DNA of 64,000 nucleotides from Bacteriovoracia bacterium (GCA_050246755.1 JBFWVL010000006.1:1-64000); one strand, 5' to 3'. Positions 26,763-56,218 are shown, counted from the stretch's first letter. Numbers and translations are program-made. Notes: generated by a model not told the origin, from the letters alone.

Positions 26763-26963
26763 ATGAGTAAAGTGCGCGGCGTTCGCTTCTCAGAAAGCGA
26801 AGAGAAGCTGATCGAAGAATTTCTTCGAAAAAACACACTGCTAGATTTTTCTACTCTAGCAAAAGTCGCCATCCTGGAATTTATCAGGAAGCCGCAGATC
26901 AACCTCACACCTGTCGGAAGCCCCTCACGAAAGGAGAATCGAGATGTCAGACCAATTTCGTGA
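26763..26963 (+). CDS. Small RHH-like regulator
   Basis: GAGGG RBS; VRGVRFSESEEKLIEEF...FSTLAKVAILEFI. Confidence 0.55.
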   Translation: MSKVRGVRFSESEEKLIEEFLRKNTLLDFSTLAKVAILEFIRKPQINLTPVGSPSRKENRDVRPIS

Positions 26964-28347
26964 AGTCCTTCCTGGCCTGGAATCCAAAGTCATTCCGTTT
27001 CCGCTCAATAGCATTAGGGAAATCGCGGAGCCAAAAGAACAAGTCATCCTGCCGCCGACGCCCGTGTACGACAAGCTCTCTGCGGAAGCAGAAAAGCTAG
27101 ATCGTCTATCGAAGTATCCCTGCTCATTGGATTATGGGATCTACCGTGACTTGGAGCTGCGATTCATGGATAAGCCGATCAACGGCGGCATCGCCATGAA
27201 GACCGCATTTCGATTGGTGAATTCGCACAACACCTGCCAGCAGTGTCTCTATGCTTTCGAGGTCGATACCTACGGACGAGGATGCGCCCACAATTGCGTG
27301 TACTGCTATGCAAAAGCAGAGCTGACGGTTCACGGCTACTGGAATAATCCGATTCCGGTTCCGATTGATTTTAATGTCATAAGGAAAGCATTTTACACCG
27401 TCTTCGAAACCGACAAGCGGAACAAGTGGCGTGAGCTTCTGAATCGAAGAATTCCTCTTCGCATTGGTTCCATGAGTGATTCCTTCATGTGGTCGGACAC
27501 CAAATATAAGGTGACCCAGGAGCTGCTGAAGCTGCTCAAATTCTACGACTATCCCTATGTCATTTTCACCAGATCGGATTTGGTGGCGCATGATGACTAT
27601 ATCAAACTTCTCGATCCGAAGCTCGCCGCAGTTCAGTTCAGTATGTCTTCGACAAATGAAGAACTTATTCGGAAAATAGAGCCAGGCGCGCCTTCAGCAA
27701 AGCGGCGTCTCAAGGCTCTTCAGAAGCTCGCCGAGAGTGGCTACTGGACGACGGTTCGACTGAACCCGCTCTTCCCAATTTATCCAGATGGGTACTTCAC
27801 CAATCCGGACTTCAAGTGGGATGGACCGGTGCCGAAATTTGAATACAGCTCCTTTGATATGGTGGACGAGTTGGCGGCCCATAAGGTTCCCGCTGTCCTG
27901 GCCGGATTTGTTCGGTTCAGCCGCCTCTCACTCAATGGAATAGAAAGGGCCACCGGAGCAAACCTCCGGCAGTTCTACAATCGGGGGGAGGTCAACAAGT
28001 CAGTGCGTGACTTCCATTTCTCCGATAGAGAAATTCGCTACTACTACGAGCAGATTAAAGCGAAATGCAGACAGCATGGAATTCAATTCACGACGTGCTA
28101 TATCGGCAACGGCGACGGCCACTTCTGGAAGGACCAGGATCTATGGTCGAATAAAAAAGACTGTTGCAATGTGAAAGGGCGCGTGTCGGCATTTGGCCCT
28201 GATAGCCGTGAGATTCCGTTTTCGACTAGGTTGAAGTTTACCAACCATAAGTGCTCCGTACCAATGAGCGACCGGCTTCATGAGCCACTTGAAAAGCTAA
28301 AGGTTGCACGAGAAAGCACAGCGCAACAGCCAGAAAATTTCTTATGA
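26944..28347 (+). CDS. Spore-photoproduct-lyase-like radical SAM protein
   Basis: DTYGRGCAHNCVYCYA (CxxxCxxC), RIGSMSD, FTRS, IEPGAPS..RRL, RLNP; extra C-terminal cysteines. Confidence 0.85.
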   Translation: MSDQFREVLPGLESKVIPFPLNSIREIAEPKEQVILPPTPVYDKLSAEAEKLDRLSKYPCSLDYGIYRDLELRFMDKPINGGIAMKTAFRLVNSHNTCQQCLYAFEVDTYGRGCAHNCVYCYAKAELTVHGYWNNPIPVPIDFNVIRKAFYTVFETDKRNKWRELLNRRIPLRIGSMSDSFMWSDTKYKVTQELLKLLKFYDYPYVIFTRSDLVAHDDYIKLLDPKLAAVQFSMSSTNEELIRKIEPGAPSAKRRLKALQKLAESGYWTTVRLNPLFPIYPDGYFTNPDFKWDGPVPKFEYSSFDMVDELAAHKVPAVLAGFVRFSRLSLNGIERATGANLRQFYNRGEVNKSVRDFHFSDREIRYYYEQIKAKCRQHGIQFTTCYIGNGDGHFWKDQDLWSNKKDCCNVKGRVSAFGPDSREIPFSTRLKFTNHKCSVPMSDRLHEPLEKLKVARESTAQQPENFL

Positions 28348-31700: not shown

Positions 31701-32005
31701 AGCAACGCAAGGACTGGCTTGATAAAGCGATTAATGGTGTTTCGCTCGCTCCAACTGTCAAAATCTTCGCCCCGAAGCTCCTCGCATAGATTTCGAAACC
31801 CATTGCAGAACTGGTAGAATGGACCGGCTTCATCGAATTCCCATTTTTCTTTGTACTTAACGGGAACATCATTCAAAAGAAATACTTCGTTAAATAACGA
31901 TGTCTGCCAAAATGGATTATTTCGATTGGCTGGAATCAACTCCAACTGCGCCGGAGTATCTTCAATTTTTTTCATTCGCTTTGTTGCCTGTGCCATGCCG
32001 ATCAA
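28727..32005 (-). CDS. Type IIG/Eco57I-like fused restriction endonuclease-N6-adenine methyltransferase
   Basis: KPD...EAK nuclease motif, GILTDGKTWRLY, LGSIYE, GSYYTP, DPAMGSGHF, GNPPY, TaqI_C-like TRD. Confidence 0.88.
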   Translation of the reverse strand: MIGMAQATKRMKKIEDTPAQLELIPANRNNPFWQTSLFNEVFLLNDVPVKYKEKWEFDEAGPFYQFCNGFRNLCEELRGEDFDSWSERNTINRFIKPVLALLGYNDNCSPSQEPWAEDEPFSVSESGQSKTYKPDLIIVNDPKELKYIERKRGDAKIEEARQLVILPIEAKYWDRIEDARQAQSEDKNRSDKSSKDDANRGMDFDEQCLKYMEILKKDFGILTDGKTWRLYNLELSSGSYKRYFQFNLGRLLMHVNAGLDRTTSDYELFIENAKYFFHIFSKEALYSESGDRRFVDDLLEYSKKYVLRVEEDLKDRFVQAMSVACNGLYKCAKKSGVTSDIAKIRNIAESHLFNILFIKHCEARNVLPLKQSPEYRKISLSNVIDKLEYFDLEKESDGLNLPMLKRVFSKDFQFSTDGTELYDRLLGLTKIVQQGTGSDFSGFEIKGFRETIFSKEEWKFAKELKLSNRDMVNILFELGYSKSDIKGKKYQQIPYNFFSPRQLGSIYESFLEFKLDVASEDMIFAKKQWQSANLSSEKVRKLDVPKVRKGDLFFSPDNKDRKATGSYYTPDYIVQEVVRRVLEPLVSGESAKSIEKLRVVDPAMGSGHFLSGALNYLATKYVDALSKEKNDDISLSVLEAKRRLLSLCLVGIDVNPRAAKLAKLSLWLESAMPGKPLEELDDQLVVADTIFTKDVLGKVRHLLDPNGVTAVVGNPPYGIDFSEDQVGQLFARFKTLHQKHDSFHVFIERMLMDDEWLKFCNIEKYRIGFIIPDTILSLDCFKKLREAFIESNVDADFILNKYDVFEDANVSTLLLIANSIRGARPSLKIGISQTPSDLASVELSPIDVDESRADKTTRFIVRSNSPLNALSSTVDDFFEATAGAQAYEVGKGTPKQTRSMLEDKIYNSTKKLNKKYRPYLYGNDIRMMHKSWRNEEFIQYGPNLSAPRDPKFHEGDRVVVQRIRNPKLEQRLVAAFIDDDSVSSVGLSVLKPREEFKRKVSAKALSVYLNLPSVNGWFKQVNNDVNVKPTVLKTIPIELEMLSFGGVLDDAFRTLAKLAKDEDEATLKSELQSLDKKLFADVKSKKRSRRAA

Positions 32006-32235
32006 ACTTCCTTCACGCGAGAAACTTGAGCGAACGTCACGTCGTCAACGAGTTGAAATTTGACCTTCTTTTTATCCTTCAGCGATTTCCATTTTCTTCC
32101 GGAATCAATGGCAGAATAGTGGACGTAATACGACTGGCCACTGTCAGCCTTAATCATCCCTTCACCGGATTTTTCATCGAACCAATGAACGGTCCCGAGC
32201 TGCCAGGCTTGTGAAATGGTTTTTGAGCGTGCCAT
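32002..32235 (-). CDS. Cold-shock domain protein (divergent)
   Basis: GTVHWFDEKSGEGMI, YYVHYSAI, KSLKD..KVKF; GGAGG RBS. Confidence 0.85.
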   Translation of the reverse strand: MARSKTISQAWQLGTVHWFDEKSGEGMIKADSGQSYYVHYSAIDSGRKWKSLKDKKKVKFQLVDDVTFAQVSRVKEV

Positions 32236-32526: not shown

Positions 32527-33360
32527 CTAGGCCCTGGAGACTCCCAGCTCTCGCCGGTACTTGAAGAACGTCCGTCGCTTCAGGCCGGTGGACTCCTCGA
32601 AAATTCGAACCTGATCTTTGACGGCTAGGCCGCGCCGGGAAAGCTGGCGAACCAGTTTCTTCGGATCTTCAGGAGCGGCAACAACCATTCGCTCCAGCAA
32701 ATCGCGCCACTGCTCCCCATTGTGCTGGGCCAGCTCGTACCCCATCTGCAAGGTTCGATAGCTGATTTGATGGACCGATGTGGCGCTGATCTTCTGACTG
32801 AGGAATCGCGCAACTTCCGTGGCCTTCTGCGTGTCCGAGTACAGATCCTGGTTCTCGGCAGCTTTCTCCAGCAACGCCTTTGCGCCTGTCGGATCAATAT
32901 TGATTCTATATGGGAAGCTCCGCGACTTCACCGCCTCGGCATCCGCTGTCGCGGGAAATGAGTTGCACACTATGACCAGCTTGCCCTCGAAGGTGAACTC
33001 TTCGGCGGACGCCTTGCCGCTGGTAGAGCCCCAGCGAATCTTGCGCTGCTTTCCCTGCCCCCATGTGGCGGCTTTCAGAATCGCCATTGAACTTTGGTCG
33101 CTGAACAGTCCCGCGCAGTCGTCGATAACGACGGTGTTGCGGGCATTGTCGTGCAGGAAATTGAAGAGATGCAGCGGTGTTGAGTACGATCCGAGATGCA
33201 CTCCGGTCACGCCCGCCGCTCGCAGAGCATCCTCGACAGCCGTAGTCTTGCCCCATCCGGGCGGCCCCTCGATAATCAGGGCGTGCATCCGCTCGCTGGC
33301 TCGGATCGTGAGGAGCAGCCGTTTGATGGCTTCAATGTGATTCAGCGACTCATTCTTCAT
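32527..33360 (-). CDS. AAA-type ATPase with C-terminal HTH
   Basis: GPPGWGKT, VVIDD, IVCN, AVKSRS arginine finger; FEESTGLKRRTFFKYRRE. Confidence 0.75.
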   Translation of the reverse strand: MKNESLNHIEAIKRLLLTIRASERMHALIIEGPPGWGKTTAVEDALRAAGVTGVHLGSYSTPLHLFNFLHDNARNTVVIDDCAGLFSDQSSMAILKAATWGQGKQRKIRWGSTSGKASAEEFTFEGKLVIVCNSFPATADAEAVKSRSFPYRINIDPTGAKALLEKAAENQDLYSDTQKATEVARFLSQKISATSVHQISYRTLQMGYELAQHNGEQWRDLLERMVVAAPEDPKKLVRQLSRRGLAVKDQVRIFEESTGLKRRTFFKYRRELGVSRA

Positions 33361-33458: not shown

Positions 33459-34847
33459 TTAGGCCCCGGTTCCTTGGCCGAGCTTCGCCGCCTTCGACTG
33501 ATTCAGCAGGTATTGCAGGTGTTGGGGCGTCACGCCGAGCCTGCGGGCCGCTTCGATCTTGCTGCCGGAGGCTTCGATGGTTTCCAGGATGTAGGACATT
33601 TTGGCCTTGGACTTCTGCTCTTCCCATTCGGAAAGCCTCATGCTTCCGGGGGAAAATGAATCTTGATCCGAATAGAGCGCCAGGTCCAAGTCTTCAGGAC
33701 GCACCAGGGGGCCTTCCGTTTGGACCAAATGCTTCTCAACGACCGCCGCCAGCTCACGGACATTGCCGGGCCAGGGGTACTTTTTTAACACGTCCACCGC
33801 TCGGCTCTGGAAATAGCGATTTGTCTGATACCGCTTGTTGTAAATTTCCGAGAAGAACGCCACAAGCGGCTCGATATCTTCTACGCGCTCACGCAGCGGC
33901 GGGATCTCAATTTCCGCCACCTTGATCCGGTACATGAGGTCTTCGCGGAAGAGCCCATGTTTCATGAGGTCGTCGATCTTTTTGTGGCTTGCGCAAACGA
34001 TTCGCACGTCGATTTTCCGTGAGAGCCTTGCTCCAATCGGCTCGACCGTTCTTTCTTGCAGGACGCGCAGGAGCTTTGCCTGAAGATCCAAGGAAAGATC
34101 CCCGATCTCATCAAGAAAAATAGTCCCTTTGTCGGCCTGAATGAACTTGCCATCCTGATCCGCGATGGCTCCGGTGAACGAACCCTTTTTGTGTCCGAAC
34201 AAGGTGGATTCAAGCAGCTCCTTAGCGATGGCCGCACAGTTGATGGCAACGAACGGCCCTTTTGCGCGTGGTGAAAGATCGTGGAGAGCGCGGGCGACAA
34301 GCTCTTTTCCGGTGCCGGACTCGCCGTGAATGAGCACGGAAACGTCGCGGGCCTCCGCGATTTTTTTGGTCTTGATAGCGACTTCCGCCATGACCTGGGA
34401 CTGCCCCTCCATCTTGACGGCCGCCAAGTGGCGGCGATTCTCGTTCTTATTCGTCGTTGGGCGGATGGTTTTCAGCAACTCGTCATACCTGTTGCAGTAC
34501 ATCCGCACTTTGCTCAAAAGATCCTGCGGCTCCGAGCTTTTTTCGATGAACTCCACGGCTCCGGCCTGGTAGCTCAGTTTCAAAGCGTCACGGCTGTAAT
34601 CGGCAGAGTACATGGCGACTTGCTGAACTGGATTGATCTCACGAATCAGCTTCGCCACAAAATCGCCAGAGGACTGCGGCATCTGAAAATCCAGCAACAC
34701 GAGGGCAAATTCCTCTTTTTTGACCAGCATCAGCGCCTCATCGGAGGTTTGGGCCGTGCTGACCTCGTAGCCGTTGATTTCCAAATAGCCCTTAGTGGCT
34801 TTGATGTTCTTCAGGTCGTCATCGACCATGAGGATCTTATACGGCAT
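33459..34847 (-). CDS. Sigma-54-dependent response regulator (NtrC/AtoC family)
   Basis: REC domain (VDDD, LDFQMP), GESGTGKE, GSFTGA loop, FLDEIG, FREDLMYR, WPGNVREL, Fis-type HTH. Confidence 0.93.
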   Translation of the reverse strand: MPYKILMVDDDLKNIKATKGYLEINGYEVSTAQTSDEALMLVKKEEFALVLLDFQMPQSSGDFVAKLIREINPVQQVAMYSADYSRDALKLSYQAGAVEFIEKSSEPQDLLSKVRMYCNRYDELLKTIRPTTNKNENRRHLAAVKMEGQSQVMAEVAIKTKKIAEARDVSVLIHGESGTGKELVARALHDLSPRAKGPFVAINCAAIAKELLESTLFGHKKGSFTGAIADQDGKFIQADKGTIFLDEIGDLSLDLQAKLLRVLQERTVEPIGARLSRKIDVRIVCASHKKIDDLMKHGLFREDLMYRIKVAEIEIPPLRERVEDIEPLVAFFSEIYNKRYQTNRYFQSRAVDVLKKYPWPGNVRELAAVVEKHLVQTEGPLVRPEDLDLALYSDQDSFSPGSMRLSEWEEQKSKAKMSYILETIEASGSKIEAARRLGVTPQHLQYLLNQSKAAKLGQGTGA

Positions 34848-36234
34848 GAGTGCTGCTCCTTTCCGTTCCCTCGGAGGGAACTGATACCGTGATCGTGGTC
34901 CCTTGACCCTGTCGGCTTTCGACATGGACCGAGCCATTTCTCTGCTCGCAGATATGCTTAACGATAAAGAGGCCAAGCCCTGTGCCGGTGGCGGGTTTGG
35001 ACGTGAAATCCGGCTCGAAAATCCGATCATACAAATGCGCCGGGATGCCGCACCCCCGGTCGGCAACTGAGAGAACGGAGGATTCCCCCTGTTTTTCGAC
35101 CTTGACGGAAATCTCCGCGCCCGTGTTTGAGGCATCCGCCGCATTTTCGACAAGGTTCTGAAGAATGCGAGCCACTTCCGAACGAGAAAGCGGAGCCAGG
35201 ACACCGGCCGCGGCTGATATATTCAACCGGATATTTTTGTTCTTGATGGATTCATTTTTCTGAAGAGACTCAATCTCCAGTCGAGCGGCATCGGAAAGAT
35301 CCAGGAGATTTTCTCTCTGATCGTTCTCGTTGAGAGTTTTCACCTGGGAGGCAATCATGGAAACTTTGCGAAGTGAGGTCTTAATTTCGTTAAGCGTGTC
35401 ACTGGCCGAGGGATCGACTTTCATCTGCTGATCCAGCGTCGCAAGATATAGTTGAACCTGAGAAACGGGGCTCAATAAGTCGTGCGCGATCCCGCGAAGT
35501 ACCAGCATCTTGGCCTTCTCGCTGGCCTGGCTTTCATAGCGTTCAATCTGGGCGGTCAGCCCCTCTATGGCATCTCGGAGCGGCGCAAGCTCTAAAAAAG
35601 GAGCCAGTGAAAGAGGGCTTTGGCTTTTGGGATTGATCCGCAGCCGCTTCGCCCATTCTTCGACTTCGGAAGCGAGCTTTTTTGACGAGACGCGGGCAAC
35701 GCTTCCGAGGCCAAGCAACATGGCCGCATAGCCAAAAGAGAAAATGAAGAAAACGATGACGACAAAGAGCCAGTCAATTTGCACCGATTTTGAAAGATAG
35801 AGGTAGCCGAAGAGGTTTTCCTTCTTCTCGTCAAAATAGATCGGGAAGAAAATTCGCCCAGGGCCGGTATAGCCATCGAAGCAAGTGAATCCCACGGTGC
35901 CACATGGACGAATAGTGTTTGGTATGATCGAGGTGGAGCGGTAAATATGCTGACGGTCTTGATTGAGAATCAAAGCGTCTTCGCCTTCCCCCAATCCGAG
36001 AACATTGTGGATTTGGTTTTCCACCGCCTTGATGTCACCTTCCAAGATCCGCGAGCGAAAGGCTTCAGCGGCAGCAGTGGCCGATTTCTGAAGATCGGTC
36101 GCCATTTTGTAGCGAGACAGAAAGAACGTGGCCGTCACGGAAATCAGAGCCATCGCTGTAAACCCGATAACGGATTGACGGAGGATGCTCCTTTCCAGGT
36201 AAGACTTGATCGTGGTGACGGCCCTTTTCTTCAC
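34837..36234 (-). CDS. Membrane sensor histidine kinase
   Basis: Two TM helices around a periplasmic domain; AHDLLSP H-box, NLVENA, DRGCGI, FEPDFTSK, GTGLGL. Confidence 0.93.
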   Translation of the reverse strand: MKKRAVTTIKSYLERSILRQSVIGFTAMALISVTATFFLSRYKMATDLQKSATAAAEAFRSRILEGDIKAVENQIHNVLGLGEGEDALILNQDRQHIYRSTSIIPNTIRPCGTVGFTCFDGYTGPGRIFFPIYFDEKKENLFGYLYLSKSVQIDWLFVVIVFFIFSFGYAAMLLGLGSVARVSSKKLASEVEEWAKRLRINPKSQSPLSLAPFLELAPLRDAIEGLTAQIERYESQASEKAKMLVLRGIAHDLLSPVSQVQLYLATLDQQMKVDPSASDTLNEIKTSLRKVSMIASQVKTLNENDQRENLLDLSDAARLEIESLQKNESIKNKNIRLNISAAAGVLAPLSRSEVARILQNLVENAADASNTGAEISVKVEKQGESSVLSVADRGCGIPAHLYDRIFEPDFTSKPATGTGLGLFIVKHICEQRNGSVHVESRQGQGTTITVSVPSEGTERSSTHAV

Positions 36235-37721
36235 TTGAACCTGACTTTCGAGAAGGCAACGGTTTCATCCGTCGTCGGCACTTGGGAAAGATCAATTCCT
36301 TCCTTAGCGATGACGATGGTCGAGTAGTGGAAAATCGGTAGCAAAGATCCTTCTCGGGTGGCTTCCGTGAAGATGCGGCGATACTCTAGGTTTCGTCCCA
36401 GGTGATCGGGGTTCAAACGGGCTTTCTTAACTCTAGCCTGGAAGTCTTTCGATCCCTCGCCCGCGTTGGGAATGATCGGTGGGGTTAGGCCGAAGAAGAA
36501 ACCCATCGCGCCTTCCACGTTCGGATCATTGACCGGCAGTGAACCAGCGACGAGATCATAGTTTCCTGCGGCTCGGGTCTTCTCAAAATCTGCAAGTGAA
36601 ACGAGCTTAAACGTGGGCTCAATGCCGGTCAGCTCCTTGAGCGTGCTGCGGATATTCCGTTGAAGGATCTCACTCATTCGGGACTCGGCGGCGAGGATTT
36701 CCAGCGGCTTCTTGCGAAAGCCTTCCGGCAACTTTGCCTCCGATCCCGCTTTTTGAAACTCGGGATCGAAAAGGATATACCCTTGCGGGAAAAACTGTTC
36801 TGTCGAATTGAAGCCAGCGAGCCCTTTGGTGATCGCGGAGCGGTCGAGGCGCTGGTTCAGATATTGGAACAGCAATCGGCCATTTTCGTTGGTCAGCCGA
36901 GGGCCAGGCGCAAAGAAGAATACTTTGTCCAGATTGCGGTGCCAGACTTCATACTTTGCTTTCTTAAATCTCTCGCTCGTTTCCACGGGAAGCAATGAAG
37001 ACGACCCCAGGAGGTTCGCCCAAGAATCTTTAAGAAAAGATTCTTGGATTTCCTCTCCGGCGGGTGGGCGGCGGATATGCACGGACTTCGGCATATTGGG
37101 CTGCGTGAAGATCCAGAACTTATTCAGCGATAGTTCGATCTCCGCGTTGGAAACGGATTTTAAGGCGAAGGGGCCGGTGGTTGTTGCCAGATCCAGCGAG
37201 TCGCCCTCTTTCACTCGAACGATACCGTACATCGGTTCCGTGAGCTTCTTCACGACTCCGCTTGTGGCCGCCGCGACATTCAACTTGAACACCAGCGTCT
37301 TGGCGTCCTTCGCTTCAATCGCGGTTACATAGTCGTAGAGGGTCTTCAGGGAATCGCCGTGGACTCGTTTGGCGCGGAGCAGGCTTTTTACAGCCTGCTC
37401 CGCCGTGACTGCGCTTCCGTCGGACCATTTGGAAGCCGCTCCGATCTTGAACGTGATCTCTTTTTCTCCGGTAACGCTCCATGATTCGGCAAGGCCGGAG
37501 ACAAGCTCTCTCGTCTTGCTCCAGCCGACAAGTGTTGAGCCGAGGGCGTAAGATAAATCGAGATCCACCAAGGTTCGCACGTTCGCGGGATCAACCGGGA
37601 GTGTGAACGGCATATAGGTTTTTACGGTGTTCTGGTTCTCTTTTGACATGACATTCTCCCCCGGCAAGATACCGGCTACAACCAACAAGAGCGAAATGCA
37701 GAGAGGCTTCCAGGCTTTCAT
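36231..37721 (-). CDS. Family-5 (OppA/DppA-like) periplasmic solute-binding protein without permease genes
   Basis: Signal peptide, VDP, GLAESW..ITFKI..KWSDGSAVTA, TTGPF, LPIFH. Confidence 0.85.
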   Translation of the reverse strand: MKAWKPLCISLLLVVAGILPGENVMSKENQNTVKTYMPFTLPVDPANVRTLVDLDLSYALGSTLVGWSKTRELVSGLAESWSVTGEKEITFKIGAASKWSDGSAVTAEQAVKSLLRAKRVHGDSLKTLYDYVTAIEAKDAKTLVFKLNVAAATSGVVKKLTEPMYGIVRVKEGDSLDLATTTGPFALKSVSNAEIELSLNKFWIFTQPNMPKSVHIRRPPAGEEIQESFLKDSWANLLGSSSLLPVETSERFKKAKYEVWHRNLDKVFFFAPGPRLTNENGRLLFQYLNQRLDRSAITKGLAGFNSTEQFFPQGYILFDPEFQKAGSEAKLPEGFRKKPLEILAAESRMSEILQRNIRSTLKELTGIEPTFKLVSLADFEKTRAAGNYDLVAGSLPVNDPNVEGAMGFFFGLTPPIIPNAGEGSKDFQARVKKARLNPDHLGRNLEYRRIFTEATREGSLLPIFHYSTIVIAKEGIDLSQVPTTDETVAFSKVRFK

Positions 37722-38024
37722 TTAGAAGGGAGCCGTCCAGCAACTCGGTTCGCTTACGGTTTCCAGTCCAGCGGAGTTTCTTCCCCGGAGAACCAGATTT
37801 CCATTTTCATCCACGCCAAGAATAACCGATTCCCAGTCGATACGCACGGTCCTCTCTAAGTCGCGGATCAATTGTTCGTAGCGAGCGCGCTCATCCGTGG
37901 AAAGTCGTTCCAAGGGAGTGAACTTCCCGTTCGGAATGATCGGGACTTGCGCTTTGGCCGCATGGCCCATCCCCAGCAAAGCAGCGGCGACCAAGAGCCC
38001 CAACTTAGGTTTTGCGTTCTTCAT
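37722..38024 (-). CDS. 100-aa exported protein, candidate RiPP precursor
   Basis: GGGGG RBS; Sec-type signal MKNAKPKLGLLVAAALLGMGHAAKA; C-terminus LETVSEPSCWTAPF with the only Cys; sits between ycaO and the SBP gene. Confidence 0.7.
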   Translation of the reverse strand: MKNAKPKLGLLVAAALLGMGHAAKAQVPIIPNGKFTPLERLSTDERARYEQLIRDLERTVRIDWESVILGVDENGNLVLRGRNSAGLETVSEPSCWTAPF

Positions 38025-38038
38025 ATACTTTCCCCCTT

Positions 38039-39067
38039 TCAGGAAACGATATGCGGTTGAGTATTTAGAGTCCGTTCCTTCATGGAGACAGAAAAATTCC
38101 TCTTCTCTGCCTGTTTCAAAACTTTTTGAATGTCGGTGCTTCCCCATGCCAGTTCAAAAGCTCTTTCGTGAGTGGCAAATCCAGCGATGACCGGATGCTC
38201 CAGGGCTTGGTGAAACTTGAAATCGGACGCTTCCGACCGGAGAAGGTCGAGTCGTTCGTTCCAGGATTGCTCTGCTTCAAGCCAGGATGTTGCTGGGCCA
38301 AACATCCATGCGGGAAATGGCTCATGATGGGCGTAGTAAACCGCGTGAGCACCCGGCTGCACTCGAACTCTTTCTTCACGCCGAAGAAGGATTTGCGAGT
38401 CATTCCAAAATGAGCGGCGCAGGGCATGGTGGGCGGCCCGGCAGGTTTCGGCGATGGCGGATTCGATGCTGTCCTGCAATTCCGTCTTCGTCGAGTGGCC
38501 GGATACTCCGTAACCGGCGGCATTCAGAAAGAGACAAGTCACCGAGGGGCCAAGACCCTCGGTGGAAATCAGGAGCTTCATTTCGGGAAACTCGGACTGC
38601 GACAACTCGTTCCGCACCCAATGCAAGATGGACTGCGGCCATTCGCTCGGTGTGATTTCGAGAAACGGAACCGACAGATACCATTGAGCAAGAACGGCGT
38701 CGCGTTCCACCAGCTCAAGAATCGCTCCGGTTCTTGCTTGCGGAAGGGTTTCGTGCGCCGCCCAGCCATTGCTCGTTCCTAGATTTTCGTGGTTGAGTCC
38801 CTTGTGCCAGCGCATCAGGCTCGCACGTTCGATCAACTCCATGATCGCTTTCGTCATGGCAAGATCCTCTGTCTTGGCCTCTCCGCAAGCCCGAACCTCC
38901 ATGCCATCCAGGGAGGCTTCGATATTGATGATGAACTTGGAGAATCGGAAGCCTGCTGGCCGAGTGCCGCGAGAAACGCGCACGTCTCTAAACCCGAATG
39001 GAAGCGACTCCCACCAGGGAGCGGAGGCACCGCTTTGAGAATCTGGAATGGCGTTATCTAATCGCAT
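38039..39067 (-). CDS. ycaO: Stand-alone, compact YcaO-family protein
   Basis: KAIMELIER and TSNGWAAH...AILELVERDA ATP/Mg-binding motifs; C-terminal QPHIVS resembles the Pro-His tail of YcaOs. Confidence 0.85.
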   Translation of the reverse strand: MRLDNAIPDSQSGASAPWWESLPFGFRDVRVSRGTRPAGFRFSKFIINIEASLDGMEVRACGEAKTEDLAMTKAIMELIERASLMRWHKGLNHENLGTSNGWAAHETLPQARTGAILELVERDAVLAQWYLSVPFLEITPSEWPQSILHWVRNELSQSEFPEMKLLISTEGLGPSVTCLFLNAAGYGVSGHSTKTELQDSIESAIAETCRAAHHALRRSFWNDSQILLRREERVRVQPGAHAVYYAHHEPFPAWMFGPATSWLEAEQSWNERLDLLRSEASDFKFHQALEHPVIAGFATHERAFELAWGSTDIQKVLKQAEKRNFSVSMKERTLNTQPHIVS

Positions 39068-39127
39068 GAAATACCAAGCCTTCTTGTTGATAGACCGCCT
39101 TGTTTCAGGCGCTCGGGTTTCCCTATG

Positions 39128-39144
39128 AGCAAGGACGGGGCCAA
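39128..39144 (-). promoter_or_regulatory. Sigma-54 -24/-12 promoter for the ycaO operon
   Basis: Minus strand TTGGCCCCGTCCTTGCT = GG-N10-GC, about 60 bp upstream of the ycaO ATG. Confidence 0.7.
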
Positions 39145-39227
39145 GTCGTAAAAGTGCTGAAAACCTGGGTTTTACGGCGAAATCCTGCATTTTTGTTGAT
39201 CTGCGGGTGCAGTTGGTGGTGCGGAAA

Positions 39228-39515
39228 TTCAGGATTTCTGAATCGGCCTGTGCGATGCGCGGTCGCCTGTAAACAATAACTGCGTGATATGTTTTACGTT
39301 TTCCACACGAAAGGCCCTGGTGCCACAAATTCAGGAACTCTGAATCGACATATAATTTTTATAGGCCGAGTGTCCGCGAGCGCACATGAGGCTGTTGTTT
39401 CGATGACAAATTCAGGATTTCTGAAGGGCTTCAGGTTTCCTGAATGTCATCGCAAGCCGTTGATTTCAAACTCGTAGTTTATTGTTTATCCAATCCGCTA
39501 TTCAGATTTTCTGAA
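39228..39515. promoter_or_regulatory. Five TTCAG-N5-CTGAA palindromes (enhancer/operator array) plus an IHF-consensus site
   Basis: Copies at 39228, 39330, 39411, 39430 and 39501; AATCAACGGCTTG on the minus strand at 39453-39465. Confidence 0.75.
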
Positions 39516-39666
39516 CTGAATCGGCGCTTTTCGAGAGCGCGAAAAATCCGATTTGTCTTTTTGCTTCTGAGACTTAGGTCACTTCAGCATTTTTCTGGCA
39601 TCGCCTTGCACTTTTAGAAGGTGAAAGGCCGCTCATTCCAGCGGGCCTGTTGGAAAGGAAAACGAA

Positions 39667-39891
39667 ATGTCCAAGTCCTATCTCACCCAATGCCCTCGCT
39701 GCGGCACTCGAAGCTACGAACAGCTTCACACCCATGGTCACTGCATCGAATGCCTCTACTCAAACGACCTCGCTCCACAGAGCGACAAGCGCGACTTCCT
39801 CACTCTGCGGGAAGCTGAGGCGCTGATCGAGCCGTCCGAGATTCATCAAATGCGAAGAGATCAAAAAAAGATTTCGGGAGCGGCGTCGTGA
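39667..39891 (+). CDS. Small Zn-ribbon protein
   Basis: AAGGA RBS; CPRC...CIEC. Confidence 0.65.
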   Translation: MSKSYLTQCPRCGTRSYEQLHTHGHCIECLYSNDLAPQSDKRDFLTLREAEALIEPSEIHQMRRDQKKISGAAS

Positions 39892-40077
39892 TCTGCCGAA
39901 GCACGAAATCCGCCATCAGAAATTTCTGGATCTGGCTCTGCCGCCAATGGGCCAAAGCCGAGGAAGTTCAGCAGCGAATTGATGCTGAACGCCTCAAGGC
40001 CCAAGAGCGTTACGGCTCCGATTTTCCGTCTCGCTGGATCTAAGGAGTCCAAACACAAACGAACGAATGGGGGTTCA

Positions 40078-40314
40078 ATGAAAAATTCCGAAACGACTTT
40101 GCGAAAGAACGACTGCGGGCGCTGGGAGGTCGGCACCCACGAGCTGACTTCGGGAAGTGTCCTTGAAATTCAGATTGACGGCCACTGGATCAGCGGCGTC
40201 ATCGAACACTGGCACGACAACTATTACTGGTTCAGCCGCCGCGACGGTGTTCCCGTCGTGCTTCACTCCGGCATTTATGCTCGTCTCCCAGACTCGAACG
40301 AAAGGAGGTTCTGA
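40078..40314 (+). CDS. DUF5348-like small beta protein
   Basis: GRWEV..ELTSGSVLEIQIDGHWISGVIE..YYW...LHSG. Confidence 0.65.
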   Translation: MKNSETTLRKNDCGRWEVGTHELTSGSVLEIQIDGHWISGVIEHWHDNYYWFSRRDGVPVVLHSGIYARLPDSNERRF

Positions 40315-40376
40315 AAACGTAGTTGAGAATCAATGAGGGGCTTTGAGGGTTCATTGTTTCAAATACGGAGTTAAAT

Positions 40377-40730
40377 TTGTCAGAAAATAAAATCGAACAA
40401 AAGCAGAAATCGGAAAGGCTGAATCTCTACTGGCTGTGCGGCCAGACGGGACGAAAGCATCCCGCCGGGGTCGCATTCTTCAACGAAGAACAAGGCGACT
40501 ATCGGCTGAAGATCGACGTGATGCCCGACGATAAGACGTTTTTCCTGAAAACGATCTCGTCGAGCGATGACGTGACTTACTACCGCGTGGAGGCGGCCGT
40601 GAAAAAGGCCGGGCGCGTGGTCCACAGGGCGGAAGTCGGTTCCGGCTACGCCAAGAAGGAAGATCCCACCATCTACATGGACATCGGCCCGTTCTCGCGG
40701 ACCCTTGTTCTTGAGCAACAACAGGCTTGA
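40377..40730 (+). CDS. Hypothetical protein leading the transfer operon
   Basis: GGAG RBS, TTG start, beta-rich sequence, coupled to the pilin gene. Confidence 0.6.
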   Translation: MSENKIEQKQKSERLNLYWLCGQTGRKHPAGVAFFNEEQGDYRLKIDVMPDDKTFFLKTISSSDDVTYYRVEAAVKKAGRVVHRAEVGSGYAKKEDPTIYMDIGPFSRTLVLEQQQA

Positions 40731-41032
40731 AGCAGGATCGTTTTCTGATGGTTCTCTTCGCGGGCTTTGCCGTTCTTATGGTGCTTTGCCCGGAACTCGC
40801 GCTCGCGCAGTTCTCGGGTGGTGCCCTGGAAAGCAAAGTCAACGGAGTGACGAGCGGGCTTATCAACTTTCTCTTGCCCGCCGCGAGCGTGATCGGACTG
40901 ATTTACAGTGCGATCCTCGCCGCGACCGGCGACGCCTCGGCGAAAGCCAGGATGACCACCATCGCAATCTGTAGCGTGGTGGGAATGCTGGCTCCTCTCA
41001 TCATTCGCTGGCTGCAAGGGATGGTGAACTGA
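40727..41032 (+). CDS. virB2: VirB2/TrbC-like pilin
   Basis: Signal ending PELALA-Q, two hydrophobic helices, first in the VirB2-3-4 order. Confidence 0.75.
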   Translation: MKQDRFLMVLFAGFAVLMVLCPELALAQFSGGALESKVNGVTSGLINFLLPAASVIGLIYSAILAATGDASAKARMTTIAICSVVGMLAPLIIRWLQGMVN

Positions 41033-41316
41033 TGCTCAAGGCATCGACGGTTCACCGAAATCTGGATGCGAAGTTTAAGATCGGCGGCGTCGAAGCCGCC
41101 GATCTGTTGGCCGTTCTACTCACGGGTGCCGTGATGAATCTGATCTTTGGGCGGCTGTCCATTGGCCCCATTTTCATCTTCGGCATTCCGGGTCTTCTTT
41201 TCTGCGCTCTCTACTTTGGGAAGCGCGGAAAACCGGAGGGCTATCTTATGCACGCACTCAAGTTTTTTATTTCATCCGGCGAACTCAGAGCCGGTGAAAT
41301 CGAGGATTCCGTCTGA
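41032..41316 (+). CDS. virB3: VirB3-like membrane protein
   Basis: VHRNLDAKFKIGG, two TM helices, directly before virB4. Confidence 0.7.
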   Translation: MLKASTVHRNLDAKFKIGGVEAADLLAVLLTGAVMNLIFGRLSIGPIFIFGIPGLLFCALYFGKRGKPEGYLMHALKFFISSGELRAGEIEDSV

Positions 41317-43742
41317 AGAAATCTCCCATTGCGGGGAAAGTGCCGTTCTTCCGGTTCGACGATCATCTGATGGTCTATCAAGACGGCTCGATGGGCGTCG
41401 GTTTCAGGCTCGGCGGATTCGATAGCAGTTGCGCCTCGGTGGACTCGATCAATGCGTTTTGCCAGAAGATCGAAAACTTTCTCGCCGGGCTCTCCGAGGG
41501 CCTGCGAATCCAGGTTTTCTACCGGCTGACGAACAACGCCTATGACGTGGTGGAGCAACACCGGGCGGTTTCGAGTGACAGTGCGCTTATCTATCAACCG
41601 ATCCGCAGCGCCCGCATCGCGTTTTTTGAAGAGAAGCTGGAATCTGGCCGGTTTTTTATGCCGGAAATCTATCTTTTCGTGCGCAGCCAGCCGCTTCAGC
41701 TCAAAAGGCGCAAGTTTTTCGAGAAGAAAGAGCGGTTTGAAGGGTTCCCGCCGGAGCAGTTTCGCGCCCATCAGGAACGGTTTGCCATTCTCGTCTCGCA
41801 GGTGGAGGCGGCGCTGCGCTCGGCGGCGATTGCGCCCAGCCGTCTGTTAAAGACGGATTGGTTCAATCTCTGCTTCTCGTACTTCAACATGGAGCGGGCC
41901 GAGATCATCGGTTGCCCCAGCTTGAGGGAGCCGACGGACGCGCTCGCTCCGAGCCTTGGTGCGCAACTGGCGCTCACGGACATTTCGGTTTCCGAGAAGC
42001 ACCTGAAGATTGGTGGGCTGTTCTTCCGCGTCGTCACGATGGGGATTTTACCGGAGGGCCAGACGGTCGCCTCCATGATCGAAAGCCTGATGAAACTGCC
42101 ATTCCACTTCTGGATGTCGCAGAACATTCACACGCTGGAACAGCGCAAAGAGATCGAAAAGCTCGAACTCATGCGCCGGATCGCAAGCTCGATGGCCTCG
42201 GGAAGCAAGAACGTCTCCGACATCGAAAGCGAATCGAAGCTGTCGAACCTCGAAGACCTGCTCCGCGAGGTCATGACCGGATCGGAGCGGCTGGTGTCTT
42301 CCGACCTGAACGTGATCTTTTGGGCGGAATCCCAAGAGGAGCTGGAGCAAAAGACGGAAGAAATCTTGCGGGCGTTCCGCGCCACCGGCCAGGCCGAAGG
42401 TCTGGTCGAGACGTTCGGCCTGGAGGACGCCTTTTTTAAGGCCGCGCCCAGCGTGTGCGAAGGGTTCCGCCATAAGCGCATGAAGACGAGCAATTGCGCT
42501 CATCTGATGCCCTTATACGCGGCCTGGATGGGCAATAAGCGGCCGGTGGTGCTGCTCACGAACCGCGAGGGAGCGCCCTTTGCCATCGACCCGTTCGCAC
42601 CGGAATTACCCAACTGGAACGGTCTGATTTTCGGCGGTAGCGGCTCAGGGAAGTCTTACTCGATTTCCCAGATGATGCTCCAGTTTTCCGGCCAGAAGTA
42701 TGGCGGCAAGCCGCCGAAGATCGTGTGGATCGACAACGGGGCCTCCAGCGAAAAGCTGATCGAGGTCATGGACGGCGAGTTCATCGACCTGAACCTCAAT
42801 TCGGGCATCCGCCTGAATGTGTTCGACCTTGAGGCCGGAGAAGCGAAGCCCACCGCCACCAAGATCAAACTGATCCTGGGGTGCCTTGAGCTGATCCTGA
42901 AGGACGACGACAAGGTGGGGCTCCCGAAGCGGGACAAGGGCCTGCTCGAAGAGGCCATTTTTTCCTGCTACCGCAAAACCGGTGAGCGCATTCCGCAGCT
43001 CTCCGATCTGAGGGAGATCCTGCGCGAGCATCCGGTGACGGATATGCGCAAATACGCCGACATCCTGTTCTCGTGGACTGGAGAAACGGCGTTCGGTCGG
43101 ATGCTCGATGGCCCCAGCAACGTGAAGCTCACCAAGGACTTGGTGTCCATCGAGATCAAGGGGCTGGAGAACTACCGGGATCTGAAGGACATCTTTCTGC
43201 TGCTGCTCACTTCGTACATCAAGGACGAAGCGGCCAGCGACTTGGCCCGCCCTTATCTGCTGATCGTGGATGAAGCACAACGGCTGTTCAAGTCGGGCTC
43301 TCCGATGGGAAGGGAGTTCGCCATAGATTCCTTTCGCGTTTTTCGTAAGTACAACGCCGGAATCTGGTGCATCTCGCAGAACTATAAAGATTTTTTGTCG
43401 GACCCGGATCTGGCAGATTCTCTCATGCCTAACACCACGTTCGTTTTCATCCTGCGGCAGCGGAAGATCGACTGGAACGACTTCAAGGAAACCTTCGACT
43501 TCGACGAAGCGGTTGTGGAGGCGGCGAAAAGTCTGGAGATCGTCAAGCGCAAGTTCTCCGAGTTTTTGCTGATCCAGGACGAAAATATCGCAGTTTTGCG
43601 TCTGGAATCTGACCCACTCAGTTACCGCATCTGTACCACCGACGGAAACGAAAAATCGGAGGAGAAGGCTCTTCGGGAAAGATATCCCGACCGCCCTCTC
43701 GTGGAAATTTTAAGTGAGCTTGCTCAAGGAGATTCGCATTAA
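41313..43742 (+). CDS. virB4: VirB4/TraC conjugative ATPase (start CTG 41313 or GTG 41340)
   Basis: GGSGSGKS, IDNGAS, LNVFD, IVDEA, FRKYN...SQ. Confidence 0.92.
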   Translation: MKKSPIAGKVPFFRFDDHLMVYQDGSMGVGFRLGGFDSSCASVDSINAFCQKIENFLAGLSEGLRIQVFYRLTNNAYDVVEQHRAVSSDSALIYQPIRSARIAFFEEKLESGRFFMPEIYLFVRSQPLQLKRRKFFEKKERFEGFPPEQFRAHQERFAILVSQVEAALRSAAIAPSRLLKTDWFNLCFSYFNMERAEIIGCPSLREPTDALAPSLGAQLALTDISVSEKHLKIGGLFFRVVTMGILPEGQTVASMIESLMKLPFHFWMSQNIHTLEQRKEIEKLELMRRIASSMASGSKNVSDIESESKLSNLEDLLREVMTGSERLVSSDLNVIFWAESQEELEQKTEEILRAFRATGQAEGLVETFGLEDAFFKAAPSVCEGFRHKRMKTSNCAHLMPLYAAWMGNKRPVVLLTNREGAPFAIDPFAPELPNWNGLIFGGSGSGKSYSISQMMLQFSGQKYGGKPPKIVWIDNGASSEKLIEVMDGEFIDLNLNSGIRLNVFDLEAGEAKPTATKIKLILGCLELILKDDDKVGLPKRDKGLLEEAIFSCYRKTGERIPQLSDLREILREHPVTDMRKYADILFSWTGETAFGRMLDGPSNVKLTKDLVSIEIKGLENYRDLKDIFLLLLTSYIKDEAASDLARPYLLIVDEAQRLFKSGSPMGREFAIDSFRVFRKYNAGIWCISQNYKDFLSDPDLADSLMPNTTFVFILRQRKIDWNDFKETFDFDEAVVEAAKSLEIVKRKFSEFLLIQDENIAVLRLESDPLSYRICTTDGNEKSEEKALRERYPDRPLVEILSELAQGDSH

Positions 43743-51360: not shown

Positions 51361-51537
51361 TTGCTCTTTGACAATTCATGGTTAGATACGAAAGAGGCAG
51401 CGGTGTACTTGCGGACCTCTCCGAAGCAGATTCGGAGCTGGGTCTATCAAGGGAAAATCAGGGCCTACAAACTTCTCGGACGTAGTTACCGATTCAAAAA
51501 ACAGGATCTCGACTCCTTGCTGAAAGGGGTCGGATAA
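51361..51537 (+). CDS. xis: Excisionase-family HTH_17 protein (absent from the ORF track, 58 aa)
   Basis: Manual translation LLFDNSWLDTKEAAVYLRTSPKQIRSWVYQGKIRAYKLLGRSYRFKKQDLDSLL; TAATG overlap with int. Confidence 0.85.
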   Translation: MLFDNSWLDTKEAAVYLRTSPKQIRSWVYQGKIRAYKLLGRSYRFKKQDLDSLLKGVG

Positions 51538-52688
51538 TGTCGATTACGTCATATAAGAAAGAAGTTTTGCCAGGAGTGACCAAGAGATTCTTTTTGGTTT
51601 TGGCCGAGGGAATCAACAAGTACACCGGAAAGAGAGTCCAAAAGAAACGCAGGGGCATCACGTCGGAGGTAAAAGCCGAACGTGTTTACCGCGAGTTGTG
51701 GAGTCTATGCCGGGAAGAGCGGCCCGATGGTCCCGCGATCAAAACGTGGGGCGAGTTGAAGGCCGCTTATCTCGACTACGTTCAGAAGAACATCCGAAGC
51801 GAAACCAATAAACATGGTTTTAGCCCGAAGACGTTCGAGAAGAAAAAGAGCCGGTTCAATCATTTGAATGACTGGCACGATCTCCACCTCGCCCTCATCA
51901 ATCCGCAGCGGTTGCGGGAGCGGTTAGATACCCTGGAAGCCCAGGGTATCGCCACTCGTGAGTTGACCAGGGATATTCAGAAGGAAATCCGGTGCGTCTT
52001 CAGCTATGCGGTTGATCGAGGGGCACTCAGCGCGAACCCGCTGGCCGAGATGAAGAACAGGCCGGTTCCGAAAAAGCGAAAGCAGGCTTTGAATCACGAG
52101 GAGGCCAACAAGCTCCTCTCCGAAGCCCGCCACCGGAACCATCCCTATTTCTTCATCTGGTTGTTGTCGATTGCGCTGGGCCTCCGCCGGAGCGAGCTTG
52201 CCGGACTGAAATGGCTGGACATTGATTTTGAAAATCGTCTGGCCCATATCAGGCGGCAGGATATTCCGAGGGAGGGCATCGTCGATGATCTGAAGAACCA
52301 TAAGGAGCGGGTCGTTGCGATCCCGGCCTTCGTTATCCCGACTCTCAAGGAGTACAAGCTACGGTCGAAGACGGATTTTGTGATTGAGGTGGACTGCAAG
52401 CAGTGGAAAAGCGGCAACCAAGCCGCCGTGTTACGGGAGTTTTGCCGGGAAATCGGCATCAAGGAAGTGACGCACCACCGACTGCGGGCCACGCATATCA
52501 CGCTGGCTTTGGTCGATGGCATCCCCTTGGGGATCGTGAAAGAAAACGTGGGGCACTCGAAGCTGAGTACCACGGACGAATACTTCAGTTCGTCCGGTAT
52601 CCAGATGCGAGGCCAAACGGATGGACTGCGAATCAAAGTGCCAACGGGAGTGGAAGCGGAAGTGATGCCGCTCAGGGCTGCAAAATGA
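51537..52688 (+). CDS. int: Tyrosine integrase (Int2)
   Basis: LGLRRSE, HHRLR, VGHS, TTDEY; related to Int1. Confidence 0.93.
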   Translation: MSITSYKKEVLPGVTKRFFLVLAEGINKYTGKRVQKKRRGITSEVKAERVYRELWSLCREERPDGPAIKTWGELKAAYLDYVQKNIRSETNKHGFSPKTFEKKKSRFNHLNDWHDLHLALINPQRLRERLDTLEAQGIATRELTRDIQKEIRCVFSYAVDRGALSANPLAEMKNRPVPKKRKQALNHEEANKLLSEARHRNHPYFFIWLLSIALGLRRSELAGLKWLDIDFENRLAHIRRQDIPREGIVDDLKNHKERVVAIPAFVIPTLKEYKLRSKTDFVIEVDCKQWKSGNQAAVLREFCREIGIKEVTHHRLRATHITLALVDGIPLGIVKENVGHSKLSTTDEYFSSSGIQMRGQTDGLRIKVPTGVEAEVMPLRAAK

Positions 52689-55561: not shown

Positions 55562-56218
55562 ATGATGGATCACTTGTCAATGAATAAGAAAATCTATGTC
55601 CTAGCCCTCAGCTTACTTTTGATGCCACAGGGGGCGAGTGCCACCGATCATAGGGTCTCAATTATCAAAGCCGAGCCCGTCTCAGCGACCGTACCGCTGA
55701 CATTGATTGCTGATGTTTCAGATTCGCCTGATAGCAAAGTCACTTCGCTGGCCGGGCGGAACTATCGTCTCTCGATTCTGGTTCCCAGGGGCACGGTCTT
55801 TAATTTGTCGCTCGGCTCAAGTGTGCCGGTGGCCTTACCAACGATCCATCACCGAAATGCTCGAGCAAAAGTGAGTTCGATTTCCAAAACCAAAATCGAG
55901 CTTATGCTCGCCAACCAAGTTCAGCTGCTCGAAGGTCAAAGGCTGCGGGTGACTCTTCCGGCAAAGCCGGTCCATCTTTATCGGATTCCTTTCCAGGCCG
56001 TTTACAGCCCAAGAGGCATAACAGCTGAGGTTTTTGTTCTATCAAGTGATCAACGAGTGAATCTTGTTCCCATCGTTCCTCTCCGTGTACTCTCAAACGG
56101 AAACGTCGTCGTTTTCTCCGATCAACTCAAAGGCGCCACTATCGTCGTGCAAGGAACAGACAATCTTGTCTCGGGAGATAAAGTTCAAGTCATCGAACAG
56201 AAAGAAGCTCATTTATGA
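55562..56218 (+). CDS. Short membrane-fusion-protein-like periplasmic adaptor
   Basis: Signal peptide; C-terminal IPFQAV..VFV..IVVQG..LVSGDKVQV; no alpha-hairpin evident. Confidence 0.65.
   Translation: MMDHLSMNKKIYVLALSLLLMPQGASATDHRVSIIKAEPVSATVPLTLIADVSDSPDSKVTSLAGRNYRLSILVPRGTVFNLSLGSSVPVALPTIHHRNARAKVSSISKTKIELMLANQVQLLEGQRLRVTLPAKPVHLYRIPFQAVYSPRGITAEVFVLSSDQRVNLVPIVPLRVLSNGNVVVFSDQLKGATIVVQGTDNLVSGDKVQVIEQKEAHL

Follow-up and report, generated by a model that had tools for sequence, protein, structure and literature searches.

A candidate self-sensing circuit with a YcaO-like enzyme, an exported small protein and a sigma-54 activator on a conjugative element of Bdellovibrionota

The DNA analysed here is a stretch of 64,000 nucleotides (the window), which corresponds to positions 1-64000 of contig C6 in a 3.55-Mb Bdellovibrionota genome that is 95.7% complete and belongs to a relative of predatory bacteria. 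It contains five minus-strand genes coding for a YcaO-like enzyme, a small exported protein, a solute-binding protein (SBP), a histidine kinase and an enhancer-binding protein (EBP). In the order of transcription, these genes are:

38039-39067, minus strand: ycaO-like gene, 342 aa; proposed maturase of the small protein
37722-38024, minus strand: gene of a 100-aa exported small protein, 14-bp gap after ycaO; proposed precursor and ligand
36231-37721, minus strand: gene of a family-5 SBP, 496 aa, 0-bp gap after the small gene; proposed receptor
34837-36234, minus strand: gene of a sensor histidine kinase, 465 aa; 4-bp overlap with the SBP gene
33459-34850, minus strand: gene of an NtrC-type response regulator and sigma-54 EBP, 463 aa; 14-bp overlap with the kinase gene

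The coordinates of these open reading frames (ORFs) confirm the packing and spacing that had been given for them in an initial annotation. There, the five products had been proposed to form a peptide-sensing circuit on an integrative and conjugative element (ICE).

Gene order and distribution of the module

Conserved synteny had been set beforehand as a test capable of refuting the proposed circuit. A pattern scan with one genome per species returned 12 loci; in all 12 of them ycaO is followed by the small ORF and the SBP gene, and in the nine contigs that reach far enough the genes for the kinase and the sigma-54 regulator follow without exception. The order is also kept in a second copy in the same genome, the YcaO of which is 33% identical. 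The five-gene arrangement is not due to chance, and the five genes almost certainly constitute one functional module.

The genome contains four related clusters of type IV secretion system (T4SS) genes, each with a module; the tie to a conjugation operon noted for the window is thus also seen at three more T4SS clusters. The second copy (locus L024, on contig C1) diverges from an operon coding for a Zn-ribbon protein, a pilin, VirB3 and VirB4, and possesses a canonical sigma-54 promoter ahead of ycaO. In the third module (L025; positions 3760-9395 of C6:142000-156000) the order is permuted to activator, small exported protein, family-5 SBP, YcaO (283 aa) and kinase. It is located upstream of another T4SS operon, its small protein ends in SVICY, and tblastn searches with the proteins of the window missed it. 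The fourth module (L026; positions 4043-10088 of C5:216000-232000) consists of activator, radical-SAM enzyme, small exported protein (ending in KIPSEW), family-5 SBP and kinase; ahead of its T4SS genes lie a small protein resembling sigma70_r4 and a Zn-ribbon ORF. Here, a radical-SAM enzyme occupies the place of YcaO, and the exported peptide, SBP, kinase and activator are retained. No other single finding argues as strongly as this replacement that the peptide is tailored by the enzyme and is part of the sensing unit. YcaO and radical-SAM maturases would then be exchangeable within one signalling architecture.

Divergent transfer genes are found at six of the 12 loci. Of the remaining six, two offer hardly any upstream sequence; in the other four, 1.8-8 kb of upstream DNA gave no T4SS matches. 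Of 301 genomes sampled from the phylum, 15 carry the family, in 13 of 170 genera; this patchy spread fits a mobile origin.

Properties of the encoded proteins

The product of ycaO matches the Pfam profile PF02624 with 61.7 bits (cut-off 25.7). At E<=1e-3, 185 homologues were found; the 120 that are listed are mostly 330-345 aa long, with a range of 273-374 aa. A model computed with AlphaFold2 (AF2) on the basis of 26 homologues has a pLDDT of 89 and a pTM of 0.88. The best matches of this model in a Foldseek search were the YcaO structures from M. jannaschii and M. kandleri (E 6e-10 to 1e-8, TM-score 0.5-0.56), which are minimal thioamide-forming enzymes, followed by E. coli YcaO, LynD, McbD and MusD. 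Altogether, 41 PDB fold matches were obtained at E<=1e-3, and those listed are YcaO structures (6peu, 6ci7, 4q85, 4v1v, 6gri and 7u58; TM-score 0.4-0.56); the identity to solved YcaOs is about 15%. Invariant in the 26 homologues are 48 residues, including two E-x2-E-R motifs, S-N-G-W-A-A-H and a C-terminal P-H-I-V-S; E77/E80/R81, S99-N-G, E118/E121/R122/D123 and E207/R210 belong to this set, the acidic ones among them being candidates for ATP/Mg2+ binding. The SNG...ELVERD block aligns with TruD, LynD and MusD. When the YcaO profile was compared to PDB chains by sequence, the SNG...ERD block alone matched (best E 0.0016). The enzyme is a genuine YcaO, if an atypical one.

The small ORF has no match in Pfam or NCBIfam. 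Its product comprises a signal peptide (residues 1 to about 26), a small alpha+beta domain (about 35-85) and a flexible C-terminal tail with P93-S94-C95-W96; signal peptides, like the topology of the kinase given below, were judged by eye from the translations. With a profile deduced from 15 locus sequences, 111 representatives were identified among 1.84 billion proteins, of which 96 are full-length and have at most 140 aa. Throughout the family, the N-terminus is of the basic-hydrophobic-AxA type and is read as a Sec signal peptide. The AF2 model shows a helix (43-59) and a hairpin (67-81) with confidence and a tail lacking secondary structure; a fold search yielded no PDB match at E<=1e-3. 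As a side observation, the repeat proteins P0243, P0244 and P0304 (755-3473 aa) match the segment "IDW...GxDExG" of the small protein 8-24 times; a common repeat unit may be the origin of the hairpin in the small protein, or the hairpin may imitate one.

Position 94 is S or T in all 81 aligned representatives (69 and 12 rows), position 95 is C, T or S in all of them (66, 8 and 7 rows), and position 93 is P in 72. The residue after position 95 is mostly aromatic or aliphatic and is followed by 2-16 variable residues. In two family members the P-[S/T]-[C/S/T] motif is doubled. Furthermore, short forms of 48-60 aa, which lie between distant ycaO/SBP pairs (about 33% identity), consist of the signal peptide and the tail motif only; their tails end in GATCEK, GAPSSG and GGASCG, such that the C-terminal [S/T][C/S] is kept. 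Cys, Ser and Thr are the side chains used by YcaO cyclodehydratases, and their interchange at one site argues for a role as nucleophile rather than as disulfide partner or metal ligand. With positions 94 and 95, the protein offers such residues at the proposed site of modification, as expected for a substrate of enzymes that make thiazole/oxazole-modified microcins (TOMMs). It also has the hallmarks of a precursor of peptides made on the ribosome and modified post-translationally (RiPPs), namely a short gene beside the maturase gene (12 of 12 loci), a conserved modifiable core and variable flanks. The invariant pair in a flexible tail, the doubled motifs and the short forms agree with its nomination as a candidate YcaO substrate, and we consider it likely from these patterns that the small protein is modified by the enzyme.

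The SBP matches SBP_bac_5 with 73.1 bits over the first 141 of 368 Pfam positions only. Its profile is nearest to OppA and MppA (E ~1e-15), followed by AapF, NikA/CntA and MbnE (5icq, E 1e-5), and its NCBIfam matches include the NikA type. There are 159 homologues, and a hydrophobic, signal-like N-terminus is kept in divergent ones. Public gene calls let the SBP start 24 residues later (472 aa) and thereby drop this N-terminus. In some sources, homologues are named "SgrR-like transcriptional regulator", apparently a carry-over from the shared SBP_bac_5 domain. The SBP had been regarded as an orphan, and indeed the permease domain BPD_transp_1 was not found in the window; the nearest instance is at C6:85440. 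Chromosomal family-5 SBP/permease sets are present elsewhere in the genome.

The kinase contains HATPase_c (87.7 bits) and a weakly matching HisKA (23.3 bits), and two hydrophobic segments enclose a periplasmic domain of about 105 residues. The regulator consists of Response_reg, Sigma54_activat (220 bits), AAA_lid_14 and HTH_8, and its translation contains GSFTGA and GESGTGKE; it thus has the receiver, AAA+ and helix-turn-helix parts that define the NtrC family. The SBP and kinase genes are adjacent in every variant but L025, where ycaO intervenes. An SBP beside a kinase with a periplasmic domain, with no cognate permease, is the composition predicted for a binding-protein-dependent sensor.

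Whether the SBP and the small protein vary together had been suggested as a further check. For the nine complete loci, the distances of the small protein correlate with those of the SBP (r 0.92; partial 0.74 given the regulator), the kinase (r 0.90; partial 0.69) and YcaO (r 0.85; partial 0.46). They follow SBP and kinase more closely than YcaO, but this is weak evidence. This co-divergence is a mere hint, because the nine loci are related and the pairs are non-independent. Co-folding of SBP residues 25-496 with residues 27-100 of the small protein gave a score of 0.00, which is no answer and counts as evidence neither way. It is about equally probable that the binding protein does or does not read the small protein.

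Regulatory DNA and the divergent transfer operon

Between ycaO and the transfer operon, three conserved DNA elements were found:

39143-39128, minus strand: canonical sigma-54 promoter TGGCCC-N5-TTGCTC (GG-N10-GC), 60 nt upstream of the ycaO start
39228-39515: five perfect TTCAG-N5-CTGAA palindromes starting at 39228, 39330, 39411, 39430 and 39501; proposed EBP binding sites
39596-39650, plus strand: element TGGCAY-N3/4-TTGCA(A/C)TTT...GGTG, 58-74 nt upstream of the first transfer gene (the Zn-ribbon ORF)

The first element is the only sigma-54 site with a score of 11 in the window. An equivalent site is located 28-60 nt upstream of ycaO in all 14 module loci that have upstream sequence, compared to a chance expectation of 0.009 per locus as derived from background density. 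Genome-wide, TGGCAY-N5-TTGCW occurs at 26 sites, and motifs with other spacers occur 3-10 times; rpoN is present in the genome.

The palindrome array fills the divergent intergenic region between the ycaO promoter and the transfer operon. Five copies of TTCAG-N5-CTGAA contrast with 0.09 expected in the window, and the 3.5-Mb genome contains only seven in total. Dyad arrays also occur upstream of ycaO in relatives, with half-sites TTCAG (L011 and L020), TTCAG/TACAG (L022), TACAG (L015) and CACAG (L019), and the second copy in the same genome (L024) has TTCAA-N5-TTGAA dyads. The C-terminal helix of the regulator varies along with the half-site: HLQYLLNQSK is found with TTCAG, HLRHLL with CACAG, and the sequence is different again in the TTCAA copy. 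An rpoN gene in the genome, a -24/-12 promoter in 14 of 14 loci and upstream dyads are what a sigma-54 activator is expected to need. In the simplest reading, the operon-encoded activator would bind the dyads and fire its own sigma-54 promoter, and we regard sigma-54 dependence with auto-activation through the dyads as highly probable on the basis of the conserved DNA. Three runs labelled cDNA, which are probably DNA, cover the genes of kinase, SBP and regulator in part, with contigs no longer than a read, and are of no use for judging expression, co-transcription or the start of transcripts.

The transfer-side element is present in the eight loci examined (the window, L011, L013, L015, L019, L020, L022 and L024). 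It resembles a sigma-54 promoter that is one or two bases short (GG-N8; N9 in the window and in L011). Its designation as a sigma-54 promoter was rejected for now, as the GG-N8/9-GC spacing differs from the N10 of the genome's sites; because of this spacing, direct sigma-54 control of the transfer genes is conjectural. An RNA structure at this position is unsupported (consensus fold -3.6 kcal/mol, one compensatory pair of six), and a search of 39000-40400 against Rfam gave a single sub-threshold chance match only.

The genes on the far side of this element, as identified by means of Pfam, include the following:

39667-43742, plus strand: start of the transfer operon, divergent from the module
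39667-39891, plus strand: Zn-ribbon ORF, which opens the transfer operon
39979-40314, plus strand: DUF5348, second gene of the transfer operon
51537-52688: tyrosine integrase (Phage_integrase)

On the plus strand, DUF5348 is followed by orf117, a TrbC/VirB2 pilin, a VirB3-like protein and VirB4. Farther along the element TrbL/VirB6, CagX/VirB9, TrbI/VirB10, an FtsK-like (FtsK_SpoIIIE) ATPase and Replic_Relax were detected, the latter with a weak match of 23.5 bits that is under the cut-off. The head-to-head arrangement with a conjugation operon is borne out by these divergent T4SS genes. The label ICE is justified as well, because VirB-like genes, an FtsK-like ATPase, a relaxase-like Replic_Relax protein and the tyrosine integrase are present.

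Several other genes accompany the module. Downstream of the regulator gene, a 277-aa P-loop protein (32527-33360, minus strand; weak nSTAND3/AAA_16 matches) and a cold-shock-domain protein (32002-32235, minus strand) are encoded; both are kept beside the module solely in L011, a locus that is 90% identical. The cargo between 16749 and 32005 resembles a defence island, with McrBC (AAA_5 and McrC), a Z1-domain protein, DUF2779, a 1092-aa type IIG methylase-nuclease similar to Eco57I/MmeI and a radical-SAM protein (26944-28347) with a 128-aa partner. Past the integrase and outside the element, an RND efflux set (55562-60554, plus strand) codes for a 1012-aa pump of the AcrB family and an outer-membrane factor.

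Interpretation and comparison with known systems

The interpretation that we propose is a self-activating sigma-54 circuit on an ICE which senses a modified peptide of its own making; all its steps rest on computation. The sigma-54 promoter would drive the five-gene operon. At the P-S-C motif of the precursor tail, the compact YcaO would activate the peptide backbone with ATP, with an azoline at the Ser/Cys pair as likely outcome, possibly accompanied by loss of the variable tail of 2-16 residues. As suggested by its N-terminus, the small protein would be exported by Sec, and the permease-less SBP would recognize the modified tail, either while it is still in the periplasm or once it has been released and has come back. 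The liganded SBP would switch the kinase via the periplasmic domain of the latter, and the kinase, judged by its domains, would phosphorylate the NtrC-type activator. The final step, binding of the activator to the TTCAG-N5-CTGAA array and firing of the promoter before ycaO, is well supported by the conserved DNA and would result in positive feedback. In view of the conserved head-to-head linkage, the circuit may gate the T4SS operon, either directly or via its first genes. That it governs transfer appears somewhat more probable than not from this gene order. It is rather doubtful that the signal acts between cells, and quorum sensing is one reading among several. For the scheme as a whole, we judge the chances of being right or wrong to be evenly balanced.

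A number of observations weigh against this scheme. With 59 bits, the YcaO-like protein is well under the cut-off of 219.25 bits of TIGR03604, the NCBIfam model for TOMM cyclodehydratases of the SagD type, and the Pfam YcaO profile is matched in its middle part alone (positions 113-289 of 325). A proline-rich, PxPxP-like C-terminus is known for cyclodehydratases; that of the family is N-x-[KQ]-P-H-I-V-S. In view of the low TIGR03604 score, the original term "YcaO-RiPP" is to be understood as a functional analogy. Pfam analysis of the neighbours (small ORF, SBP, kinase and EBP on one side; Zn-ribbon, DUF5348 and T4SS genes on the other) revealed no E1-like protein, RiPP recognition element or dehydrogenase partner at the locus. 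The closest solved folds are thioamide-forming enzymes, and an azoline is thus one candidate product among others. TfuA (PF07812) was not found in the 95.7%-complete genome, in agreement with the initial annotation. Thioamidating YcaOs that work without TfuA have been described; since such enzymes exist and are the nearest folds, thioamidation is conceivable.

Further counter-arguments concern the signal and the DNA. The mature small protein (about 70 aa) has a confidently predicted folded domain of about 50 residues, and an exporter, an outer-membrane channel and a protease were not seen at the locus in general Pfam scans, with no dedicated search being made. A freely diffusing signal therefore fits poorly in a diderm cell. 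The absence of ThiF/E1, flavin dehydrogenase, protease and exporter from the element, as originally claimed, holds for the ICE ORFs run through Pfam; no search was aimed at these proteins. The spacing in front of the transfer operon is GG-N8/9-GC and not the canonical N10, the palindrome pattern gave nothing upstream of ycaO in L012, L018 and L021, and T4SS genes are absent upstream in four of the ten loci with at least 1.8 kb there.

The main rival explanation, which we consider unlikely on balance, is that SBP, kinase and activator detect an external cue such as a peptide derived from prey or cell wall, an opine-like compound or a metal complex. In this case, the protein modified by YcaO would remain a periplasmic accessory that serves as co-receptor, as tethered pseudo-ligand or, similar to the bufferins, as metal- or redox-reactive cofactor. 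The folded domain would be accommodated in this way, as would the absence of exporter and protease genes among the scanned ORFs, and the neighbours of the SBP in profile space are the murein-peptide binders OppA/MppA as well as nickel and metallophore binders and MbnE. There are precedents for RiPPs that are exported to the periplasm by Sec and bind metal by means of heterocycles formed from Cys. However, a general cue would not require a diverged set of parts of its own in each of four elements, and the short forms keep the tail motif although they lack the folded domain. The co-divergence of the small protein with SBP and kinase points, if weakly, in the same direction, and auto-activation of the operon, while it also occurs elsewhere, is a typical trait of self-signal loops.

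An improbable alternative is that the YcaO product is a weapon or an exclusion factor, that is, an antimicrobial or a surface/entry-exclusion peptide, with SBP and two-component system serving self-sensing induction or immunity. Many YcaO products are antibiotics, and auto-induced RiPP operons with two-component sensing, of the lantibiotic-like kind, occur in Firmicutes; moreover, an arms race could underlie the variability of tails and SBPs. The presence of just one modifiable site in a Sec-exported protein of about 70 aa does not suit such a function, an immunity transporter, an exporter and a leader protease were not seen among the scanned ORFs, and the module lies repeatedly beside transfer genes and not in the cargo. 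It is very improbable that the SBP acts like PrgZ and passes the peptide to a chromosomal Opp/Dpp permease and a cytoplasmic receptor, with kinase and regulator sensing something else: the genome does have chromosomal family-5 SBP/permease sets, and element-encoded OppA homologues such as PrgZ of pCF10 feed host permeases, but the genes of SBP and kinase share 4 bp and remain neighbours save in L025, the SBP matches its Pfam profile over no more than the first 141 of 368 positions, and no cytoplasmic receptor of the RRNPP type was seen among the ORFs scanned.

Each element has an enzyme, a peptide, a receptor and operators of its own that have diverged from those of the others; if the circuit does sense its own modified peptide, the channel is probably private to the element. 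One may tentatively extend this to Bdellovibrionota conjugative elements in general, with more doubt than confidence: they would carry private channels with a swappable maturase (YcaO in three clusters, radical SAM in one), an SBP-kinase-sigma-54 readout and an operator code of their own, and each would count copies or detect donors or recipients before transfer. In diderms, such channels would correspond to the Phr, pheromone and arbitrium systems, with an enzyme-modified peptide as signal. Several mutually diverged versions of enzyme, peptide, receptor and operator would coexist as orthogonal sets in one genome; specificity would thus be directly testable, and the sets would be potentially useful as insulated sensors. 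The interpretation would also give a function to the populous family of short YcaOs (at least 185 homologues), which is absent from the characterised set.

Among known systems, LuxP/LuxQ and LuxO of Vibrio resemble the proposed receiver in combining a permease-less periplasmic binding protein, a membrane kinase and an NtrC-type sigma-54 activator. The regulator matches the NCBIfam model of LuxO with E 8e-81 and 272 bits, well below the cut-off of 800 bits. LuxPQ is a binding-protein-dependent kinase that responds to autoinducer-2 (AI-2) and signals via the LuxU relay. In contrast, the putative ligand is here a ribosomal, modified peptide, the SBP belongs to family 5, no LuxU-type relay was seen, and the genes reside on a mobile element. 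The same three-part receiver of SBP, kinase and sigma-54 regulator is found in AioX/AioS/AioR; sensors of this type recognize inorganic or metabolic ligands and have no ligand-making enzyme or precursor of their own. MbnE is likewise a family-5 SBP that binds a heterocycle-bearing ribosomal peptide, and it serves in the uptake of a copper chelator and not as a kinase co-receptor.

The control of transfer by an element-encoded secreted peptide and/or family-5 SBP in private pairs has parallels in Firmicutes, namely cCF10/PrgZ/PrgX of pCF10 and RapI-PhrI of ICEBs1. The peptides of those systems are unmodified, Opp-imported and read by cytoplasmic RRNPP receptors, whereas in the circuit proposed here the peptide would be enzyme-modified and read in the diderm periplasm via a kinase and sigma-54.

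With respect to the enzyme, stand-alone or minimal YcaOs such as the methanogen YcaO for McrA thioamidation, the bottromycin YcaOs and MusD similarly have no fused E1 or RiPP recognition element and act near a C-terminal follower, as is proposed here. The enzyme described here differs by its low identity (about 15%), its shorter length (342 aa), its distinctive conserved C-terminus and its Sec-exported putative substrate. As precedents, the literature describes an azoline-forming YcaO that can engage a long structured leader, and for MusD a YcaO-type, ATP-dependent removal of C-terminal residues. Sec-exported RiPP precursors have been called rare and are shown for the bufferins: these are MNIO-modified, a Cys is converted to a heterocycle before export, and the mature product is a small folded periplasmic protein. 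The small protein would share with them the Sec signal peptide of the precursor, the proposed modification at Cys and the small folded form in the periplasm. Bufferins depend on MNIO/DUF692 and DUF2063 instead of YcaO, are copper chelators, and are linked neither to an SBP-kinase-EBP set nor to conjugation.

The arrangement had been put forward as one not previously described, and a literature search, which covered full text with subscription journals and supplements outside its scope, indeed found no description of this combination beyond the analogies cited. If the interpretation is correct, and as far as the searches show, this would be the first system in a diderm lineage in which a conjugative element is governed by peptide-based self-sensing, and the first case of a YcaO-modified, Sec-exported protein serving as signal for a binding-protein-coupled kinase. 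By comparison with the systems listed above, it would be composed of known kinds of parts in a new combination.

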